Shown here: positions 8,063-17,065 of the stretch, in pieces
Layout: every line of letters begins with the position of its first letter
Numbering within the stretch: position 1 is the stretch's first letter
Source: Verrucomicrobiia bacterium
Lineage (GTDB): Bacteria > Patescibacteriota > Saccharimonadia > Saccharimonadales > JAGQNK01
Reading direction: 5' to 3'
Length of the DNA stretch: 64,000 bases
Assembly: GCA_035489575.1 (NCBI GenBank)
Contig: DATHJY010000011.1
Span: 20,514-84,513, forward strand
The notes under the pieces: model-generated
Databases searched by the model: none
The model's input: only the letters and a program-made list of their open reading frames with translations
What the model was told of the DNA's origin: nothing
Translations under genes and position numbers: made by a program

Positions 8063-10560
8063 AAGTTAGTCTGAATTGGATCAAGCAGTTTACAGACGTC
8101 AATATATCTATTGACGAGCTCGTAACCAAGATTGGTGCCCAGCTAGGTGCTGTAGAAGAAGTGACCGATCTGGGTAAAAAGTATCAAGGCATTTTGGTGG
8201 CCAAGGTGATGTCGTGCCAGAAGCATACCAACGCCGACAAACTAAACGTTTGTCTGATAGACGACGGCGGCAAGGCCGAAGGCGTCACTCGTAACCAAGA
8301 CGGTCATGTGCAAGTGGTCTGTGGCGCACCAAATGTCCGCGCCGGGCTGACTGTTGCGTGGCTGCCGCCGGGTGCCACCGTGCCCAGCACGTATGACAAA
8401 GATCCATTTGTGTTAGAAGCGCGCGAAATACGCGGGACCGTTAGCAACGGCATGCTGGCTAGCGCCAAAGAGCTGGCGCTTGGTGACAACCACGACGGTA
8501 TTGTCGAACTGGACACACCAGCAGAGCCTGGTACCTCGTTTGCCGAAGCCTACGAGCTGGACGATCATATTATCGAGATAGAGAACAAGATGTTCACCCA
8601 CCGGCCCGATTGCTTTGGCATCTTGGGTGTGGCCCGCGAAATAGCCGGTATCCAGAACATTCCGTTCAAGAGCCCGGACTGGTACGTGCGCTCGCTAGAC
8701 CGCATAAAGCCTGGTGCAAAAACACTGCCGCTAGAGGTCCGCAACGAGGCTGGCGCCTTGGTGCCACGCTTTATGGCTATTGCCCTAGCAGACGTGCAAA
8801 TGGGCCCGAGCCCACTCATCATCCAGACCTACCTGAGCCGAGTGGGGCTGAAACCTATCAACAACATTGTTGACGTTACCAACTACCTGATGGTTCTCAC
8901 CGGACAGCCGTTGCATGCCTACGACTACGACAAAGTTGTAGCCAAGAGCGGCACCGTTCCTACTCTTATCGCCCGGCAAGCCACCGGCGAGAAGATCAAG
9001 CTGCTCAACGGCAAAGAACCTGTCATCGAAGCCCCGACCGTGGTGATCGCAACCGACAAAGAAGCCATTGGCGTCGGTGGGGCCATGGGCGGAGCCGACA
9101 CAGAAGTAGACGACGACACCAAGAACATCATTCTGGAGTGTGCCAACTTTGACATGTACGCGATTCGGCGGACAGCCATGAAATACGGCTTGTTTACCGA
9201 CGCCGTAACACGATTCAACAAAGGCCAAAGCCCGCTGCAAAATGACATAGTACTGGAAGAAGCCGTTACAACTGTTGCCTATGTATCCAATGGTAGTGCC
9301 GCCAGCCAAGTCTTTGACGTTAAATCACAGCTGCAAAAACCAGCCCCCGTGCAGGTAACCAGCGACTTCATCAATGTGCGACTCGGCTTGCAGCTGCCCG
9401 CCGAGGATATGGCACGCCTGTTAGAGAACGTAGAACTAGTAGTAGAGGTGCACGGCGACGAATTGTCGGTCACGCCACCCTATTGGCGCACCGATATAGA
9501 GATTGCCGAGGACGTCGTAGAAGAAGTAGGGCGCCTGTACGGTTTTGACCACTTGCCGTTGGAGCTGCCCGTACAATCTATCAAGCCCGTCACCCAAGAC
9601 GCTTTGTTTGACCTAAAGTCACAGATTCGTCAGAGTTTGGCAACTGCTGGTGCCAACGAACTACTCACCTACAGCTTTGTGCACGGTGATCTCTTGGCCA
9701 AAACAGGACAGAACAGAGAACAGGCTTTTCAACTGAGCAATGCCCTCAGCCCAGACCTGCAATATTTCCGCCTCAGCCTGACACCCAGTTTGCTCGACAA
9801 AGTGCACCCCAACATCAAGGCCGGCTACGGTCAGTTTGCACTGTTCGAGATTGGTAAGTCCCACATAAGAGGACAGCAGGATCGCGTCGAGCAGCAGGTA
9901 CCCCTCGAACTAAATGCTCTCAGTCTGGTAATTACCGCCGATCCTAAGGCAGCAACAAACCTACAGGGCGCAGCCTTTTACCAGGCCAAACAATATCTGT
10001 CGGTTCTGCTGAAAAACCTTGGAGTGACAGACATATGCATCGAGCCAATTACCGACGAGCTGTCCGACCAGTCAGTCATGGGTATCGTAGCTGCGCCTTA
10101 CAATCGGGCCCGAAGTGCAGTGATCAAGAATCACCAAGGCCACGCCATGGGGATCGTTGGCGAGTTCAAGCCGTCAGTTGCCAAGGCACTCAAACTGCCC
10201 GCACACACTGCCGGTTTCGAAGTAGGATTGCACGCCCTTAAGACGCAGCAGCAATCTTCTTATCATCCCTTGTCTAAGTTCCCTAGTGTTCAGCAAGACA
10301 TTTCGCTCCGAATAACTGCTGACATCGACTATGCGCGTTTGCATGACGAGCTGCAGGCCGGGCTGGCCGAGCTAGACGATAGCCACCTGCAAACTAGGCT
10401 AGAGCCCTTAGACATCTACCAAAAAGATGACGTAAAACACATTACCTTCCGCCTGACAGCAACCCATCACCAAAAGACACTGAAAAGTACAGAGATCAAC
10501 CACCTTCTAGACAATTTGGCCGAGCGCGTTAGCCAAAATCTCGGCGCCGAACGGCTATGA
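8059..10560 (+). CDS. pheT: Phenylalanine--tRNA ligase beta subunit
   Basis: 833 aa. N-terminal tRNA-binding (EMAP) domain, B3/4, B5 and the C-terminal anticodon-binding FDX-ACB domain are recognisable. Start overlaps the previous stop. Confidence 0.95.
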   Translation: MKVSLNWIKQFTDVNISIDELVTKIGAQLGAVEEVTDLGKKYQGILVAKVMSCQKHTNADKLNVCLIDDGGKAEGVTRNQDGHVQVVCGAPNVRAGLTVAWLPPGATVPSTYDKDPFVLEAREIRGTVSNGMLASAKELALGDNHDGIVELDTPAEPGTSFAEAYELDDHIIEIENKMFTHRPDCFGILGVAREIAGIQNIPFKSPDWYVRSLDRIKPGAKTLPLEVRNEAGALVPRFMAIALADVQMGPSPLIIQTYLSRVGLKPINNIVDVTNYLMVLTGQPLHAYDYDKVVAKSGTVPTLIARQATGEKIKLLNGKEPVIEAPTVVIATDKEAIGVGGAMGGADTEVDDDTKNIILECANFDMYAIRRTAMKYGLFTDAVTRFNKGQSPLQNDIVLEEAVTTVAYVSNGSAASQVFDVKSQLQKPAPVQVTSDFINVRLGLQLPAEDMARLLENVELVVEVHGDELSVTPPYWRTDIEIAEDVVEEVGRLYGFDHLPLELPVQSIKPVTQDALFDLKSQIRQSLATAGANELLTYSFVHGDLLAKTGQNREQAFQLSNALSPDLQYFRLSLTPSLLDKVHPNIKAGYGQFALFEIGKSHIRGQQDRVEQQVPLELNALSLVITADPKAATNLQGAAFYQAKQYLSVLLKNLGVTDICIEPITDELSDQSVMGIVAAPYNRARSAVIKNHQGHAMGIVGEFKPSVAKALKLPAHTAGFEVGLHALKTQQQSSYHPLSKFPSVQQDISLRITADIDYARLHDELQAGLAELDDSHLQTRLEPLDIYQKDDVKHITFRLTATHHQKTLKSTEINHLLDNLAERVSQNLGAERL

Positions 10561-12287
10561 AAAAAGCCCTCTGGCTTATCCTGGCCTTTTTATGGGTAAC
10601 GCTGGGCATGGCACCCATAGCACATGCCGGCGTAGACGATTTTGTTGTCAACGATTTCTATGGCCAGTATCGTCTGCATAACGACGTGCATGGGGGCCGT
10701 ATGGAAGTAACAGAATCGATCGACCTGACGTTTTCGGACAACAACCACGGCATCCTGCGTGCCTTGCCGCAGATTAACAGGGGCCATTCACTCCACCTAG
10801 AAGTAAAGTCTGTCAGTCGTGATGGCCAGACCGAGCCCTATTCGTCGTATACCGAGAATGACAACACTGTGCTCAAGATTGGTGACGCTGGCAGAACCAT
10901 CACCGACCACCATAGCTATCAAATTAGCTACGAAATGCAGAACCTCATGGATTTCTACGACGGATTTGACGAGTGGTATTGGAATATCAACGGTACCCAG
11001 TGGAGGCAGCCATTTACCCAGGTAAGGGGCGAGGTCATTTTGCCAGATGGCTGGAAGGCGACAGACAGAACTCCCTCGTGCTATACCGGTCCCCAAGGCA
11101 GTACTGCGCAAAACTGTACACTTGTACCTACCGGTCAAGGGTATACATTCGCCGCAACCCATCCACTTGGTGCGGGCGAAAACCTATCGGTTGCCGTGCC
11201 GATTCAGAAGAGTTTATTTGCTCCTACTACTACGGGTGACTGGGTGCGGCAAAATATTTTGCAGTTAGTGGGGATTGTCGTTGGGCTAGGCGGCGTCTTG
11301 TACGCTTTTAATTTATGGCGCAAACATGGCAAAGATTACAAGGGCAGGGGTGTTATTGTCCCAGAATACAAGCCGCCAAAGGGGCTCAGCCCAGCAGAAG
11401 TTGGATTGCTGATGGACTACAACCTAGACAACCGAGACCTGTCGGCAACCATCATAGACCTAGCCATCCGTGGTTACCTGAAAGTCCATGACGAGGAAAA
11501 GAAACGGCTTGGTCTTTTTACCAAGCATGTATTTAGTTTAGAGGTCGTCAAGGCCGACACCACTGGTCTGAAGCCACACGAGATTGACCTCCTGGGTGCA
11601 CTGTTCAAGCCCTTCCAGGTCGGTACCATCCAAGATATTTCCAAGATAGACAAAACAAAAATGTACGCGGCCGTTACCAAAATTCGCAGCAAGCTCAAAT
11701 CGAGCCTGACCAAAGAACACGGCCTGCTCGAGGAAAGCCCTTCTGGTGCCTACGCCAAACTAATTGGCCTGGCCCTGGTAGCATTTATGATACTTATATT
11801 TACTGGTGCGGGATGGGGATGGCTGATAGGCATGTTGGCAATCATCCTCAGTGCCATACTGGCCATGATTCTGATGCGTCGCCGCAGCCACGCGGGCGTA
11901 GAGGCCTATGAAAAGGTCAAAGGACTCGAGCTGTACATGAAAACAGCTGAAGAGGATCGGCTGAAGATGCTCCAGAGCGTAGATCGCCCATACGCCGCAC
12001 CCTCCAAGACAGTCCACTTGTTCGAGAAACTCTTGCCGTTTGCCATAGCCTTGGGCGTCGAGAAATCCTGGGCTAATCAGTTTGATCATATATACAGTCA
12101 GCCACCCGGTTGGTACAGTGGCAACTTCAGTACATTTAGCACTGTCTACTTTGCGCATAGCCTGACCCAAGGCGTATCAGCCATGAACAGCAGCTTTAGC
12201 GCACCCACTAGTTCTGGCAGCTCCGGCAGCGGTGGCGGAGGTTTCTCTGGGGGCGGTGGAGGTGGTGGCGGGGGTGGGGGCTGGTAG
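10557..12287 (+). CDS. DUF2207-family membrane protein with Gly-rich C-terminal tail
   Basis: 576 aa with a signal/TM segment, an extracellular N-domain, internal TM helices and the terminal SSGSSGSGGGGFSGGGGGGGGGGGW characteristic of DUF2207 proteins. Confidence 0.8.
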   Translation: MKKALWLILAFLWVTLGMAPIAHAGVDDFVVNDFYGQYRLHNDVHGGRMEVTESIDLTFSDNNHGILRALPQINRGHSLHLEVKSVSRDGQTEPYSSYTENDNTVLKIGDAGRTITDHHSYQISYEMQNLMDFYDGFDEWYWNINGTQWRQPFTQVRGEVILPDGWKATDRTPSCYTGPQGSTAQNCTLVPTGQGYTFAATHPLGAGENLSVAVPIQKSLFAPTTTGDWVRQNILQLVGIVVGLGGVLYAFNLWRKHGKDYKGRGVIVPEYKPPKGLSPAEVGLLMDYNLDNRDLSATIIDLAIRGYLKVHDEEKKRLGLFTKHVFSLEVVKADTTGLKPHEIDLLGALFKPFQVGTIQDISKIDKTKMYAAVTKIRSKLKSSLTKEHGLLEESPSGAYAKLIGLALVAFMILIFTGAGWGWLIGMLAIILSAILAMILMRRRSHAGVEAYEKVKGLELYMKTAEEDRLKMLQSVDRPYAAPSKTVHLFEKLLPFAIALGVEKSWANQFDHIYSQPPGWYSGNFSTFSTVYFAHSLTQGVSAMNSSFSAPTSSGSSGSGGGGFSGGGGGGGGGGGW

Positions 12288-12464
12288 CAAAAATAATTAG
12301 TATTGCATATTGTATTAATTGGTTATATAATATATGAACTTTTAGTCGAGCATTGCTCCTAAGGGTGCACATTGACAGATGTAATTCGAATAGTTTGATA
12401 ACTTTTTAGGAATCCTTACTGCTGCAAGCGCTATTGGTTGGATGGTTTTGCTTCGCCATATATT

Positions 12465-12671
12465 TTATGACGAGCCAAAACTGTCCAACAAGACAATAGA
12501 ACTTAGCCGCCGAGCGCCTGAGAAAGTATTAGAAGCGTAGGTTGAAATACGCTTCTTGTGCGTATTTCTCATGGCGATCCGCAGGAAGGGGTGAGCGCTT
12601 GAGCCGGTGTCTGCCGCCTGTGCCGCGATCTGGCCACGCTTGTCGTGACCATTGGTATGGACTTTGTCCAT
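12465..12671 (-). CDS. Possible small ORF (68 aa), doubtful
   Basis: Strong SD (aaaggggtgg) sits 3 nt upstream of the ATG at 12671 (MDKVHTNGHDKRGQIAAQAADTGSS...). The 3' half contains two mutually exclusive perfect hairpins and runs into AT-rich DNA, so the real product may be shorter or the locus may be RNA. Confidence 0.25.
   Translation of the reverse strand: MDKVHTNGHDKRGQIAAQAADTGSSAHPFLRIAMRNTHKKRISTYASNTFSGARRLSSIVLLDSFGSS
12531..12568 (-). promoter_or_regulatory. Pair of mutually exclusive 9-bp hairpins (attenuator-like)
   Basis: agaagcgta (12531-12539) pairs with tacgcttct (12548-12556). The overlapping gaaatacgc (12544-12552) pairs with gcgtatttc (12560-12568). Both cannot form at once. 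Confidence 0.3.
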
Positions 12672-12829
12672 AACCACCCCTTTCTGTGTTTCGATAGAGC
12701 TGGACCTTCTAACGAAGCTCTGGTTCCATGTTCGGGTTCCTCTGGTTGAAGCGGTTGTTCCGCCACTTCCGGCTGACGCCAGAGGAACCCACAGGTCAAG
12801 ATAGTCCTCTCCTCGAAGGAGACGAAAAA

Positions 12830-13012
12830 GTGGCCACATGCACCAATTGCGGTGGTTCTGGCAAAGTTGGTCTGACCAAGCTCAAATGCACTCCGTGCAA
12901 GGGCACCGGCAACATCAGGAAAGAGAACGCCTGCAGTCCATGCAGAGGTACCGGCAAAGTTGGGTTTCCCCAGCGGAACTGTACTCCTTGCAGAGGAACA
13001 GGTCGCCGGTAG
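12830..13012 (+). CDS. Stand-alone DnaJ-type cysteine-rich zinc-finger mini-protein (4 x CxxCxGxG)
   Basis: CTNCGGSG, CTPCKGTG, CSPCRGTG and CTPCRGTG repeats. GTG at 12830 is preceded by GAAGGAGA with 8-nt spacing. The long ORF version starts at ATG 12728. Followed by a 12-bp terminator-like hairpin. Confidence 0.55.
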   Translation: MATCTNCGGSGKVGLTKLKCTPCKGTGNIRKENACSPCRGTGKVGFPQRNCTPCRGTGRR

Positions 13013-13024
13013 GTAAAGGGGGAC

Positions 13025-13062
13025 GTGTCAGTCAAGCGGACGACAGCCTTCTTGGCTGACAC
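13025..13062 (+). terminator. Hairpin after the zinc-finger ORF
   Basis: gtgtcagtcaag/cttggctgacac is a 12-bp stem with one U-G wobble valid only on the plus strand, 13 nt after the stop codon. The U-tract is poor. Confidence 0.45.
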
Positions 13063-13098
13063 TCACCCCCCATTGTTTAAAAAACTACACCGAATTGC

Positions 13099-13148
13099 AT
13101 CTGTCCATCTATCCAAGTCAAGCAAAATTCTGGTTGCTTTGGACAGAT
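13099..13148. repeat. Nested hairpin carrying the GACAGAT box
   Basis: atctgtcca/tggacagat (9 bp) encloses aagcaa/ttgctt (6 bp). Confidence 0.5.
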
Positions 13149-13150
13149 AG

Positions 13151-13180
13151 TTGTGGAAATGTTTTATAGCATGCTATAGT
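13151..13180 (+). promoter_or_regulatory. Candidate promoter with a perfect 14-bp palindromic operator
   Basis: TATAGCATGCTATA (13165-13178) is a perfect palindrome. TGCTATAGT (13172-13180) fits an extended -10. A weak -35 TTGTGG lies at 13151-13156 with an 18-nt spacer. Confidence 0.3.
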
Positions 13181-13666
13181 GAAAAAGCGACGATAGAGGT
13201 AGAGCAACTGCTCCCACCATCGTAGCACTTTGACAGATATATGGTTTGTCTCCCTGAGGCAGTAATGCTTGTCCGCAATAATTTGTGGCCAGCCATTCTG
13301 TCTCATACGAGACTTGATGATCGAGCACGGATACCGACACGTCCCCCAACGTCCTGTTGGTTCCATGCTCTGGAGAGGAGAGACTTCGGTCCGACAGCGC
13401 ACTCCCCCTGCGCAGTTGAAGGGCTTTGCCCGCTCCTCTCCAATCTCGCTTGCTGCTCCAGTCATTGGAAGCAGTACACCTAGTCGAGGTAGACGATCTC
13501 GCCGCCGAGAACGTCTGGAACAACTTCGGTTGTTTTGCCGCTCCACGCCAAGGCACCTCGCTCGGCGAGAGAGATGCTTACATAGCTGTGCTTGCGATAG
13601 ACGCTGTAGTCCACGCGCCTTCCCTGCATCCGGGCAACCGGGTCTCTCTCGTCGCTTTCTAAAAGG

Positions 13667-13740
13667 TCTGGGTTCCGTGACACCTCCGCCGACGCCAGTC
13701 CGCCCGCCCGCCGGCCAGAGTTCTTGTCACGGAACCTAGA
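13667..13740 (+). repeat. Tandem hairpin module U1
   Basis: tctgggttccgtgac (13667-13681) pairs with gtcacggaacctaga (13726-13740): 15 bp including one G-U. The 44-nt loop is C-rich and contains CACCTCC and CCGCCCGCCCGCC. Confidence 0.7.
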
Positions 13741-13763
13741 GTTCTACCAAGAAGGTAACAAGA

Positions 13764-13842
13764 TCTGGGTTCCGGAACATCGTGCTTGCTCAAGCGCCGC
13801 CCGCCCGCCCGTTTGGGTAACACGTCCGTTCCGGAACCCGGA
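13764..13842 (+). repeat. Tandem hairpin module U2
   Basis: tctgggttccggaac (13764-13778) pairs with gttccggaacccgga (13828-13842): 15 bp including one U-G. The loop contains CCGCCCGCCCGCC. Confidence 0.7.
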
Positions 13843-13868
13843 GTTCTCTACAGTTGTAGTACGAGACC

Positions 13869-13960
13869 TGGGTCCCGCGGCTTACTTGCTGCTTGTGCGT
13901 CAGCTGCACCTCCGGCCGCCTCCACACAATCGGCGAGTGCCACACCAGTCGCGGGACCCA
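13869..13960 (+). repeat. Tandem hairpin module U3 (diverged)
   Basis: tgggtcccgcg (13869-13879) pairs with cgcgggaccca (13950-13960): 11 bp. The 70-nt loop contains CACCTCC and GCCGCCTCC. Confidence 0.6.
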
Positions 13961-14073
13961 TCCCTCTCCAAAAGCGAAATCCCCCACCCATATATCTGTC
14001 AGTTAATCAGAATGCAAGAGCCCAAACCTCTCGTGCATTGTGACTAGCACATAATCCACTCTATAACTCTCCT

Positions 14074-14153
14074 AGGCCTCATCCGGCAATAAGCTGTGCG
14101 GTTCAGGACAGATGGTTTCTAGCTGAACGTGCAGATTATTGTCGGATGGGCCT
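14074..14153 (+). promoter_or_regulatory. Long leader hairpin upstream of the RND permease gene
   Basis: aggcctcatccggcaataa pairs with ttattgtcggatgggcct: 18 bp, one bulged C, and two wobbles valid only on the plus strand. It encloses gttcag/ctgaac and ends 50 nt before the ATG at 14204. Confidence 0.4.
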
Positions 14154-14203
14154 TAGTATTTGCTTACGTATGCTAAGCTTTTAGCAATAAGAGGGTCTTT
14201 AGC

Positions 14204-17065
14204 ATGACAGGGCGCAAGAAAACTATCGTTACCAAAGAAAAAGACAAAATGTTGGCAAAATTTACGACGTTCTTCTTTGATCGTCCCCGAATAACAGCCA
14301 TATTGTGGCTGGTTGTGGCAGTTTTTGGTGTTGCCAGCTACACCACGCTCCTCAAGCGCGAAGGTTTCCCGAGTGTGCAGATCCCCATCGCTATCGTAAC
14401 CGGCACCTATGTGACTAATGACCCAGCAAAGGTAGACGCCGAGGCCGCCAAGCCTCTGGCCGAGATTGCCCTGAAACAGGCAAACGTCAACACCGTTACA
14501 ACCCAGAGTTCTGGCAACTTCTTTAGTACCTCCATTCAGTACAAAGAAGGCACCGATACCGCAGCTGCGGCCAAAACCCTAGAGCAGGCTGTAAAAGACT
14601 CAGGCAAACTACCTGCGTCTGCTCGGCTGCAATACAATGTGCCGTACTTTGGCGCAACCGGGGGAGACATCCGGCAGATAGATATAGCAGTATCTTTTTA
14701 CAGCAAGAAAACAGCTTCAGAGGCAGACCTAAATGCCAAAGCTACCCAGGCTGCTACTTGGCTACAAAACAAAAAGATCCCGCATGTTCATGAGGTCTTT
14801 GTAAAAAGTCCACTCGAGTCTGTTGCCGATCCCTCAACCGGGCAGGCGGTTACGATTCAGCGCAGCTTTGACCGCTATGGCAAGCGTGAGGGAGGCCAGG
14901 CCGCCTTCTATAATTCGGTCATCGTCGGCATGTCTGCCAACAAGGGCACCGATGTCATTAAGCTGGACCACGATGTGCGTCAAGCTTTGCAGGAACTTAT
15001 GGGCCAGCCGGGTTTTCAGGACTATGGCGCAGATGTCAGCGCCAGCTTTGCGCCATCTATCGAAGAGAACTTGAGCGAATTGCAACGAGTGCTCCTAGAG
15101 GGACTGTTGGCAGTGCTTATCGTGGGCTCTATTGTTATCGCCATTCGGGCCTCGCTGATCACAGTCATCTCTATGATCACTGTGCTAGTGGCTAGCATTG
15201 CCTTTCTGTATGCGGTCGGGTATTCGCTGAACGTGATAACACTGTTTGCGCTCATACTAGGTCTGGCACTGATAGTCGACGATACCATTATTATGGTAGA
15301 AGCTATCGACGCCGCCCGAGCACGCGAGAAAGATCCACGCAAAGCCGTACAGATAGCTACCAGAAAGGTCAGCCGTGCCATGGTGGCAGCCACCCTGACC
15401 GCCAGCCTCAGTTTTGCGCCACTGTTATTTGTAGGGGGTATTCTGGGCAGCTTTATTCGAGCCATACCTATTACCATCATTGCCTCGCTCCTGATCAGCC
15501 TAGTGGTAGCACTGGTGTTTATTCCGTTCTTTGCTCGCTTCCTGCTACTTGGCAAAAAGCAAATGGGCAAGCAGGCCGTCAAAGAAGTTGCTGCCGGTTT
15601 CGAGGCCAAGCTGGCACAATTTATTGCCAAGCCCATGCTGTGGGCTAGGCATTCTAAACCCAAGTTGTTTGGGGTGGGCATTACGGCTGTTTTGATTGGT
15701 CTGGCATTTATCGGTGCCGGTGGAGCAATTGCTCGGCACGTGGTGTTCAATATCTTTCCGCCTACCAAGGACACCAACGGCCTCGTAATGGCTATTAACT
15801 TCCCGGCCGGTACAACCATTGGCCAAGCCGAGGCTATCGCCGGCAAGGCCGACGAGCTAACTAAGCAAATCGTTGGTGACAACTTTGTGCAGGCTTCTTA
15901 CTACGGAACCGGCAGTGCCCAAACCGGCACCCTGTTTGTACAACTGACGCCGTACAACAAACGCGATATTCGTTCACCAGAAATCGTCAAGCAAGTGCAA
16001 GATCGCTTTACGGCCGATTTCAAAGAAGCCCAGGTGGCCGTGGGCCAACAAGACGTTGGGCCGCCGTCCGCGTCCTTTGTGGTGCAAATAGACACCGCCA
16101 ATCGGGGGGCAGCCTTTCGGGCCGCCAAAGACCTGGCCGCCTACCTGTCCACTGTCGAACTAAAACGCCTAGATAACAGCACTGCGCGTATGAAAAACGT
16201 CACAGTTGCATCGGCAGATGAATACGTTCGGGTTGGCAACAAATCGGTTGTACAGGTTCAGGCCGGTTTTGACGGCACGGACACCACCACCCTGGTAAAT
16301 TTGGCCCAAGAGGCCGTCAAAGACAAGTTTGGTGGCGCCACTCTGGCAAGCTATGGCCTGGCCAACGACGCCATCCATTTCGAACTAGGGCAAGAGGCAG
16401 AGAACCAAGAATCATTCAACGCCCTCCTGCTAGCATTTCCGGTTCTGTTGGCAGCCATGTACGTATTACTAGCGGTGCAATTCCGTTCGCTCTTGCAACC
16501 ACTGCTGATTTTTTTGGCCATACCGTTTAGTTTCTTCGGCATTATGTTGGGCCTCAATCTCACCGATAACGCCATCAGTTTCTTTGCTATGCTGGGCTTC
16601 TTTGCGCTCATTGGTCTGAGCATCAAGAACACCATTCTGCTGACAGATTTTGCCAACCAGGCCAGACGTGCAGGAGCAGACCCTATCGATGCAGCCGTTG
16701 CTGCGCTGGAAGAACGCTTCCGGCCCTTGTTCGCAACCAGCATGACTGCCGTTGTGTCACTCGTACCCTTGGCTATCGCTAGTCCGTTTTGGGAGGGTTT
16801 GGCCGTGGTACTCATCTTTGGCCTACTGTCGAGCACGTTGTTGGTTGTGACCGTCTTTCCGTACTACTATCTGGGGTCGGAGTACTTGCGACTTAAATTT
16901 AAGCGACGCCATGTGGTGTTTTGGTTGATCGCCCTCATCGGTGGGGTGATTGCTTTGTCTGCCCTGGAAAAGCGCACACTTATTGGCCTGTGGCTGCTCA
17001 TTTGTGCGCTGTATCCAATTGTGTATGTTGTTAACAAAAAGCATGTGCTTCCCCGGGTTTTGTAG
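14204..17065 (+). CDS. RND-superfamily efflux transporter permease (AcrB/AcrD/AcrF-like)
   Basis: 953 aa with the N-terminal FFFDRPRITAILWLVVAVFG helix, two large periplasmic loops and 12 predicted TM segments in the RND pattern. The start could instead be the ATG at 14249 (MLAKF...). Confidence 0.85.
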   Translation: MTGRKKTIVTKEKDKMLAKFTTFFFDRPRITAILWLVVAVFGVASYTTLLKREGFPSVQIPIAIVTGTYVTNDPAKVDAEAAKPLAEIALKQANVNTVTTQSSGNFFSTSIQYKEGTDTAAAAKTLEQAVKDSGKLPASARLQYNVPYFGATGGDIRQIDIAVSFYSKKTASEADLNAKATQAATWLQNKKIPHVHEVFVKSPLESVADPSTGQAVTIQRSFDRYGKREGGQAAFYNSVIVGMSANKGTDVIKLDHDVRQALQELMGQPGFQDYGADVSASFAPSIEENLSELQRVLLEGLLAVLIVGSIVIAIRASLITVISMITVLVASIAFLYAVGYSLNVITLFALILGLALIVDDTIIMVEAIDAARAREKDPRKAVQIATRKVSRAMVAATLTASLSFAPLLFVGGILGSFIRAIPITIIASLLISLVVALVFIPFFARFLLLGKKQMGKQAVKEVAAGFEAKLAQFIAKPMLWARHSKPKLFGVGITAVLIGLAFIGAGGAIARHVVFNIFPPTKDTNGLVMAINFPAGTTIGQAEAIAGKADELTKQIVGDNFVQASYYGTGSAQTGTLFVQLTPYNKRDIRSPEIVKQVQDRFTADFKEAQVAVGQQDVGPPSASFVVQIDTANRGAAFRAAKDLAAYLSTVELKRLDNSTARMKNVTVASADEYVRVGNKSVVQVQAGFDGTDTTTLVNLAQEAVKDKFGGATLASYGLANDAIHFELGQEAENQESFNALLLAFPVLLAAMYVLLAVQFRSLLQPLLIFLAIPFSFFGIMLGLNLTDNAISFFAMLGFFALIGLSIKNTILLTDFANQARRAGADPIDAAVAALEERFRPLFATSMTAVVSLVPLAIASPFWEGLAVVLIFGLLSSTLLVVTVFPYYYLGSEYLRLKFKRRHVVFWLIALIGGVIALSALEKRTLIGLWLLICALYPIVYVVNKKHVLPRVL

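Follow-up and report, generated by a model that had tools for sequence, protein, structure and literature searches.

A conserved island upstream of an RND permease gene in Saccharibacteria: a two-species candidate for a large structured non-coding RNA

Introduction

What could hold a non-coding unit of about 1 kb through a divergence that saturates neutral sites in Saccharibacteria, whose genomes of about 1 Mb have almost no spare DNA and where such a unit is therefore unexpected? The question is raised by a 64,000-nt stretch of contig DATHJY010000011.1 (assembly GCA_035489575.1, positions 20,514–84,513 of the forward strand; hereafter the window, whose own numbering is used throughout). A gap of 1917 bp between the gene of a DUF2207 membrane protein (10557–12287, +) and that of an RND/AcrB-type permease (14204–17065, +), the sole long gene-poor stretch noticed in this otherwise densely packed window, holds a 771-nt element (13231–14001) which an original prediction had presented either as a large structured plus-strand RNA or as a non-autonomous mobile element. 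Our analysis supports the first of these readings, on the grounds of purifying selection on non-coding DNA, a structure that is kept in a second species, compensatory changes and the lack of any match in Rfam. We propose that the element belongs to a stand-alone plus-strand non-coding RNA (ncRNA) of about 0.87 kb (roughly 13188–14050), to which we assign a probability of about 0.6; so far, it is a credible two-species candidate for a new large ncRNA.

Purifying selection on non-coding DNA

The element is closed by the arms TGACAGATATATGG (13231–13244) and CCATATATCTGTCA (13988–14001), which are exact reverse complements over 14/14 bp, as had been predicted. The chance expectation for such 14-mers was estimated at about 0.003 within the 1.2-kb region, and at about 0.2 for pairs within 1 kb of each other over the 64 kb. 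The composition and the poverty in open reading frames (ORFs) that had been noted by eye were also confirmed: the enclosed 771 nt have 58.2% G+C versus 51.3% for the window, with an excess of C on the plus strand (C 33%, G 25%), and only short overlapping ORFs are present, with no Pfam domain across the six frames.

Exact-protein look-ups led to three assemblies (L001–L003) in which the gap is identical to that of the window. In addition, a Logan assembly from a related Saccharibacteria species (L004), with an RND protein 93% identical to that of the window, showed a homologous 1.9-kb gap at the same position. As L004 is the sole homologue with readable DNA, the cross-species comparisons of the element below are between it and the window. 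Four-fold degenerate positions in the RND and DUF2207 genes on either side show an identity of only 51–52% between the two, so neutral sites are near saturation. The identities along the gap were as follows.

13074–13230: upstream block, 89% identity (100% over stretches of 30 nt), constrained
13231–14001: element, 82% identity over 659 aligned nt, constrained
14002–14050: 3′ hairpin segment, 87.5% identity, constrained
14051–14146: spacer, 62% identity, near neutral
14147–14203: the RND gene's own upstream region, 95% identity

Within the last of these regions, the box TAAGCTTTTAGCAATA (14174–14189), just upstream of the RND start, is kept in all the relatives examined, including those that have no element, and is probably the RND gene's own promoter or a signal in its 5′ untranslated region (UTR). 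The fall of identity to 62% past position 14050, together with the retention of this box without the element, places the constrained unit at about 13074 to about 14050; the repeat-bounded 771 nt of the original prediction are, thus, too small a unit. The upstream block, despite its high identity, is not unusually structured (z = −1.8).

The substitutions in the element show no 3-nt periodicity (35, 40, and 43 by position modulo three), and its 16 indels, of lengths 1, 1, 2, 1, 1, 1, 1, 2, 1, 2, 1, 2, 1, 103, 3, and 1, are of 1–2 nt in 14 of the cases and not multiples of three in 15. An identity of 82% against saturated synonymous sites, without periodicity and with frame-breaking indels, indicates that the element is constrained but not coding; that is, purifying selection acts here on non-coding DNA. 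Gene callers place a 228-aa ORF on the L004 copy, which has no counterpart in the window, where frames are broken every 50–100 nt. The stop-free translation of 13610–14044 was compared exhaustively with 1.84 billion protein representatives by HMMER; this search recovered the spurious L004 ORF, which served as a positive control, and otherwise a chance match to a repeat protein. A concatenated six-frame "protein" query gave no matches, in a search that was probably saturated by candidates, and back-translated peptides of a 156-aa ORF gave 600 pattern matches among genome contigs, none of them confirmed, with a method that would miss even L004.

Conservation of the structure

Relative to dinucleotide shuffles, the plus strand of the element has z = −13.5, with a minimum free energy (MFE) of −349.6 kcal/mol. 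The minus strand folds with a similar energy but with z = −6.9 only, because its shuffles fold better. In a partial scan with 400-nt windows over the first 20 kb, the island gave four of the five most negative z-scores, the exception being a trio of hairpins at 600–825. The L004 element alone is also strongly structured (z = −10.3 against shuffles), and the independent folds of both sequences agree in the closing helix, the long hairpin, the junction domain with a UUCG loop, the long-range helix, the UUCG and GCAA domains, and the hairpin modules.

Preservation of the fold was measured in a non-circular way by placing at random in the window sequence the same 136 substitutions, with the same from–to spectrum, and 23 indel positions that separate it from L004 (module M2, described below, removed; 150 mutants). 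The random mutants averaged −262.7 ± 8.8 kcal/mol, whereas L004 folds at −338.0 kcal/mol (z = −8.5, plus strand), lower even than the −323.1 kcal/mol of the window without M2; for the minus strand, the same test gave z = −5.8. The RNAalifold consensus contains 249 pairs in 31 helices, 235 of them common to both sequences and 14 in M2. Among the shared 235 pairs, 10 double compensatory and 24 wobble changes were found, versus 0–1 double changes and 37–41% pairing in controls in which the 3′ partners were slid by 1–3 columns. Substitutions affect 9.4% of the paired columns versus 31.7% of the unpaired ones. The homologue thus shows compensatory changes in stems and no 3-nt periodic conservation, the latter having been named as a refutation of the original prediction, and the structure is what selection preserves between the window and L004. 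The consensus is organized as follows, all of it on the plus strand.

13187–13226, +: 5′ leader hairpin before the closing helix (RNAalifold helices 1–2; the MAFFT alignment is uncertain at 13216–13223)
13231–13244, +: closing helix, 5′ arm (left inverted repeat), 100% identical in L004, where the helix has 16 bp
13248–13313, +: domain 1, a long hairpin with interruptions and about 26 bp in all (helices 4–5), with one double (A-U to G-C) and three wobble changes in L004
13323–13370, +: domain 2, a hairpin interrupted by an internal loop, its tip CCAAC...GUUGG being conserved (helices 6–7)
13371–13442, +: domain 3, a four-way junction that is closed by a 9–10-bp helix and carries three small hairpins, of which one has a UUCG cap; recovered also when L004 is folded independently (MFE)
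13446–13451 (UCGCUU) with 13972–13977 (AAGCGA), +: long-range 6-bp helix inside the closing helix (helix 12), found in both the window and L004 when each is folded on its own (MFE)
13452–13475, +: domain 4, a hairpin (helices 13–18, shared with domain 5)
13482–13562, +: domain 5, multibranched (helices 13–18, shared with domain 4), containing the c(UUCG)g hairpin 13517–13536
13564–13653, +: domain 6, a 12-bp helix of CGGCGAGAGAGA with UCUCUCUCGUCG and three enclosed hairpins, including the GCAA-capped one at 13628–13643 (helices 19–22)
13654–13756, +: hairpin module M1 (core 13667–13740) and a small trailing hairpin (81.7 bits with model R1)
13760–13848, +: hairpin module M2, a tandem paralogue of M1, missing in L004 (103-nt indel)
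13863–13966, +: hairpin module M3, with stem 13869–13882/13947–13960 (helices 28–30, four double changes)
13988–14001, +: closing helix, 3′ arm (right inverted repeat)
14002–14048, +: 3′ hairpin with 15 interrupted pairs (helix 31), the last well-conserved segment and probable 3′ end region

All the helices described from the letters were found again by a repeat finder and by MFE folding, including the 10-bp helix 13371–13380/13433–13442 with its three enclosed hairpins, the c(UUCG)g hairpin at 13517–13536, and the GCAA-capped hairpin at 13628–13643; an additional UUCG loop lies at 13385–13388. All eight pairs of the hairpin at 13517–13536 are kept in L004 through one double and three wobble changes. 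The 6-bp long-range helix is invariant between the window and L004 and offers no covariation. Two further complementarities of 15 nt (13018–13032/13333–13347 and 13184–13198/13644–13658) were considered and discarded, as they are not kept in L004.

The three tandem hairpin modules were present as described, although their stems measured 14–16 bp rather than 11–15 bp. M1 (core 13667–13740), M2 (13764–13842), M3 (13869–13960), and the two L004 counterparts provide five copies of a 13-bp stem, which is 98.5% paired versus 15–52% in slid controls. Both sides have changed at 6 of the 13 pairs, and one position shows U-A, G-C, and C-G. A covariance model of the module found these five copies only in 151 kb of sequence (window and related loci). 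The clean 103-nt indel by which M2 is lacking in L004 implies that modules are gained or lost as units.

Strand, putative promoter, and probable transcript ends

Every asymmetric measure favours the plus strand.

Consensus energy: plus −285 kcal/mol, minus −249 kcal/mol
Structure conservation index: plus 0.86, minus 0.74
Wobble-type changes: plus 24, minus 14
Substituted pairs kept in the window's own MFE fold: plus 39/63, minus 28/65

The UUCG and GCAA loops are also plus-strand motifs and are invariant. The original claim that every wobble pair is valid only on the plus strand went too far, as this does not hold for all of them, but the strand itself came out favoured in each strand test. 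Since the pairs are mostly of the Watson–Crick type, a good fold is obtained from the minus strand as well.

About 50 nt upstream of the closing helix, the extended −10 element and the 14-bp palindrome that had been pointed out were both located, the former with TG at 13173–13174 and TATAGT at 13176–13181. The putative promoter reads as follows.

13152–13181, +: putative promoter, with a weak −35 TTGTGG (13152–13157), TG (13173–13174), and −10 TATAGT (13176–13181)

The extended −10 TGcTATAGT (13173–13181) is kept in L004 as TGnTATAGT. The perfect 14-bp palindrome TATAGCATGCTATA (13166–13179) overlaps the putative −10 and is TATAACATGTTATA in L004, still perfect through a symmetrical double change (G-to-A/C-to-U); it could serve as an operator or else form a small hairpin. 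A generic sigma-70 two-hexamer scan made no call at 13152–13181, because the −35 is weak. From the position of this promoter, the RNA would start near 13188.

A large structural RNA as the proposed product

We propose that transcription would proceed from this extended −10 promoter and that the 14-bp inverted repeat would act as a closing helix, joining the ends of the RNA around some 30 helices arranged in six domains and two or three tandem hairpin modules. Selection acts mainly on the helices and also on a few conserved single-stranded joining segments, and whole modules can be gained or lost. Conserved helices with expandable arms, as in scaffold-type RNAs, make a stable structural RNA acting in trans the most likely role, either alone or as a ribonucleoprotein, for which a 60-aa zinc-finger protein, whose gene directly precedes the RNA in the island, might be a partner.

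Several points weigh against this proposal. The RNA gene is predicted from sequence alone, and we infer its transcription, on which the conserved extended −10 and the strand bias of the wobble pairs bear, the ends of the transcript, and its independence from the neighbouring messenger RNAs (mRNAs); a scaffold function in trans, or a partnership with the zinc-finger protein, is pure inference. Judged against the consensus, the promoter is weak, and no clear intrinsic terminator is seen, with no U-tract after the 14002–14048 hairpin. Covariation comes from two sequences and the internal paralogues; since the consensus fold was itself built on those two, the counts of pairs and of substituted columns lean towards the consensus. 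In addition, several long helices, together with the closing and the long-range ones, do not vary and are hence neutral on pairing, and are more conserved in sequence than pairing alone demands. The element has a very narrow distribution, being known from the window species and L004 and perhaps also present in two contigs of which the DNA was not read. Finally, the motif T[TG]GACAGAT appears five times across the island, both repeat arms included, which hints at protein binding or another role of these arms at the DNA level.

A possible cis-acting RNA

The first alternative keeps the structured RNA but makes it part of a neighbouring transcript. It would be a very long structured 3′ UTR of the zinc-finger mRNA, or else lie ahead of the RND efflux gene as its 5′ leader or an upstream regulatory RNA, with effects in cis on translation, termination, or stability. 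Upstream of the element, the island has the following features.

12288–12570, +: left-edge block of the island, non-coding, conserved, and structured (z = −4.8), with TTGACAGAT at 12372, a long hairpin at about 12430–12500, and a terminator-like hairpin at 12524–12556
12830–13012, +: gene of a 60-aa zinc-finger protein with four CxxCxGxG motifs (DnaJ-type), with a GTG start after AAGGAG
13018–13069, +: hairpin right after the zinc-finger stop codon, with compensatory changes (GUGUCAG/CUGACAC to GGCCAG/CUGGCC in L004)

The pattern of conservation indicates that the ORF at 12830–13012 is a real gene, with identities to L004 of 0.80, 0.92, and 0.66 at the three codon positions. The best matches of its product, Pfam DnaJ_CXXCXGXG and the NCBIfam anti-TRAP RtpA, are both below cut-off, and gene callers miss it and call instead a non-conserved 68-aa ORF (12465–12671, −). 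In the left-edge block, a U.G and a G.U pair of the window's hairpin at about 12430–12500 become U-A and G-C in L004, where the terminator-like hairpin 12524–12556 is duplicated.

A cis-acting role would fit with the orientation of the genes flanking the element, all of them on the plus strand as the proposed RNA, with the lack of a clear terminator between the element and the RND gene, with the segment 13074–13150, which lies upstream of the proposed promoter and is as conserved as the RNA, and with the zinc-finger gene and the element being always together in the island. However, the covarying hairpin at 13018–13069 may end the transcript of the zinc-finger gene, and the conserved extended −10 lies between that ORF and the element. 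On the other side, the element is parted from the RND gene by the 96-nt near-neutral spacer (62%), which carries a 24-nt indel, and the RND gene keeps its upstream box in element-less relatives. Moreover, no match to known riboswitch or leader models was found. We thus regard a cis-acting RNA as unlikely, with a chance clearly below that of a stand-alone transcript.

A possible role at the DNA level

A second alternative is that the T[TG]GACAGAT sites bind a regulator or a recombinase, the segment being involved in operator looping or being an invertible switch of neighbouring genes, and that the hairpins are secondary. These sites are the main reason for retaining it.

12372–12380 (+), 13099–13107 (−), 13140–13148 (+), 13230–13238 (+), and 13993–14001 (−): T[TG]GACAGAT sites, the fifth being a near-copy in the right repeat arm
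13230–13238, +: among these, the copy of the TTGACAGAT motif overlapped by the left repeat arm
13099–13107 (−) and 13140–13148 (+): among these, the inverted pair of TGGACAGAT motifs in the upstream block

The four exact matches in the 64 kb, versus 0.7 expected by chance, all lie within 12372–13238, and the motif could be a protein-binding site. A 17-nt direct repeat, GCACATTGACAGATGTA (12367–12383) and GCACTTTGACAGATATA (from 13225), which includes part of the left repeat arm, is conserved in L004. The repeat arms and their flanks are 100% identical, though the other positions of the element differ at 18%, and the palindrome over the −10 has changed symmetrically. The arrangement also resembles invertons of the fimS and hin types, in which short inverted repeats with identical arms surround a few hundred bp upstream of a surface or transport gene.

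Such a role, however, leaves unexplained the selection on about 235 internal pairs and the wobble bias towards the plus strand. In contrast to invertons, no recombinase or invertase domain was found in the ORFs of at least 100 aa of the window, no sigma-70-like promoter lies inside the segment on either strand, and a single orientation was observed in all the independent assemblies (ENA, Logan, JGI) and in L004. The interior is constrained for pairing of the RNA type, and the repeat has lengthened to 16 bp in L004, as would a helix. Altogether, a DNA-level function appears quite improbable.

A possible mobile element or decayed gene

The other possibility raised by the original prediction, a non-autonomous mobile element such as a miniature inverted-repeat transposable element (MITE), or its fossil, inserted upstream of the RND gene, is favoured by the perfect 14-bp terminal inverted repeat with TG...CA ends in a sub-kilobase, ORF-less, self-complementary segment, as in MITEs and non-autonomous derivatives of insertion sequences, by a G+C content unlike that of the host genome, and by the variability of the DUF2207–RND spacer among relatives. 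Synteny walking showed that the element is absent from distant relatives with RND proteins 64–76% identical (L005–L007, L016–L019), in which the spacer is occupied by an ABC-transporter gene (L005), by almost nothing (L006, L007), or by an unrelated 115-aa ORF (L016), whereas L017–L019 have gene neighbours different from those of the window. The spacer is a variable hotspot among Saccharibacteria, with the 1.9-kb island in the window and L004. This presence or absence between lineages concerns the whole island and not the repeat-bounded segment.

Against a MITE, the element is in a single copy, at an orthologous position in two species; conservation runs across both of its "ends", and its interior is under strong purifying selection. 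Its flanks (CACTT|...|GTTAA) share no direct repeat that could represent a target-site duplication, nor was any other flanking direct repeat found. The many copies that the original prediction had named as the mark of a MITE did not appear, as no further copy, full or partial, exists in the 64 kb or in eight related loci (about 87 kb). As had been stated for its vicinity, no transposase, integrase, or reverse transcriptase is encoded, and this holds for the entire window. A plasmid and phage blastn in distant mode and five exact or gapped patterns from the conserved blocks against viral contigs gave no match, and DNA-pattern scans of viral, metagenome, and species-representative genome collections detected nothing related.

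The terminal 20-mers gave four hits each in metagenome and genome collections (596 Gb of genomes, JGI metagenomes), all of them chance matches in unrelated low-G+C organisms. The four metagenome hits have nothing in common except the 20-mer, and in two of these phage terminase-like coding sequence ("LTDIWF") can be read; for the four genome hits, a terminase-like origin is only a guess. We consider a mobile element very improbable.

Finally, a decayed or frameshifted protein gene, or a real one missed by ORF rules, can practically be set aside: its one support is the 228-aa ORF called on the L004 copy, which is not conserved in the window, and against it stand the 1–2-nt indels, the lack of codon periodicity and of Pfam hits, the L004 ORF as sole homologue among the 1.84 billion representatives, and a constraint far above neutral, unlike that of a pseudogene.

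Comparison with known large RNAs

The original prediction had recognised no known family in the element, and no Rfam 15 model reached its gathering score anywhere in the window, in a test that covered GOLLD, ROOL, OLE, HEARO, raiA, RNase P, tmRNA, 6S, group I and II introns, and riboswitches. At E ≤ 10, both the window and L004 showed only generic long-hairpin (microRNA precursor) or chance hits far below the cut-offs. ARAGORN found no tRNA or tmRNA. Other identities were considered and rejected: a tRNA or gene split by a group I or II intron (joining the flanks produces neither a tRNA stem nor an ORF, and the intron models give no hits), a replication origin (no strand switch, no DnaA boxes), and an integron attC array (no R′/R″ boxes).

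The likeness to GOLLD, ROOL, and OLE that had been noted is, thus, an analogy of kind and not homology, as no covariance model matches. In common with OLE, GOLLD, ROOL, and raiA, the element has a size within 0.6–0.9 kb, dozens of helices, multibranched domains and stable tetraloops, conserved stems with variable peripheral arms, and is a non-coding single gene. It differs from them in the lack of any Rfam sequence or structure match, in its host phylum (Saccharibacteria, of the candidate phyla radiation, CPR), and in its distribution, which comprises two species versus hundreds to thousands. Furthermore, it has no phage or prophage context, unlike GOLLD and ROOL, and no oapA/oapB-type neighbours, unlike OLE. 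OLE works with small partner proteins (see also PMC12286853 and PMC7936274). We rate the element as a new family within a known general kind, that of the large ornate bacterial RNAs.

To our knowledge, large highly structured bacterial RNAs are rare, with only a handful of classes, and we know of none described in the CPR phylum. The known classes are unusual in structure or biology, including membrane ribonucleoproteins and RNA-only cages. A tentative proposal, to which we give slightly less than an even chance, is that the element would be the first member of a new class of ncRNAs, large, modular, and ornate, in the ultra-small and host-dependent Saccharibacteria, with its own promoter, a closing helix of 14–16 bp, expandable hairpin modules, and a function as RNA scaffold or ribonucleoprotein, possibly with the co-inherited 60-aa DnaJ-type zinc-finger protein. 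If true, this CPR-specific example would extend the large-RNA kind to a new phylum and would offer a compact, modular target for structure determination, although its very narrow distribution limits both its general importance and the present statistical strength.

A different lead is provided by the C-rich hairpin loops of the element, with ACCUCC in the loops of M1 and M3 in both species. Regulatory RNAs with C-rich loops include RNAIII and the Rsa RNAs of Staphylococcus, and such loops could in principle pair with Shine–Dalgarno sequences; CCUCC is not enriched beyond composition (3 copies versus about 2 expected, by estimate).

Distribution and other observations

Beyond the window species and L004, two JGI contigs with RND proteins 87% and 71% identical present gene-free gaps of 1.0–1.1 kb at the matching place (about 1.0 kb between the DUF2207 and RND genes in the P0006 contig, about 1.1 kb directly upstream of the RND gene in P0003); these contigs, whose DNA was not read, may also carry the element. 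A query with the RND N-terminus aimed at partial contigs gave nothing above 68% identity. From these comparisons, the element seems to be restricted to one narrow lineage of Saccharibacteria.

The assembly of JGI sample 3300020034 is interrupted within the element, between the end of one contig (L022, window position 13440) and the start of another (L003, window position 13454), leaving a 13-nt gap. Both contigs are identical to the window, and structural variation was rejected as the cause in favour of an assembly or coverage effect at the GC-rich helices.

An RND protein identical to that of the window (P0001) is filed at NCBI as "Verrucomicrobiae bacterium", likely through mis-binning or a mislabel. 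The named RND homologues, few among the 120 listed, all belong to Saccharibacteria, Saccharimonadales, or Patescibacteria, and synteny likewise matches Saccharibacteria.

The remaining genes of the window are all housekeeping. Far from the island, the segment 595–825 contains three strong, nearly perfect hairpins (z = −8 for 601–1000) in the convergent spacer between a PAP2 gene and the gene of a Fur/Zur-family regulator (826–1254, −), next to a ZIP zinc transporter; these hairpins are probably bidirectional terminators.

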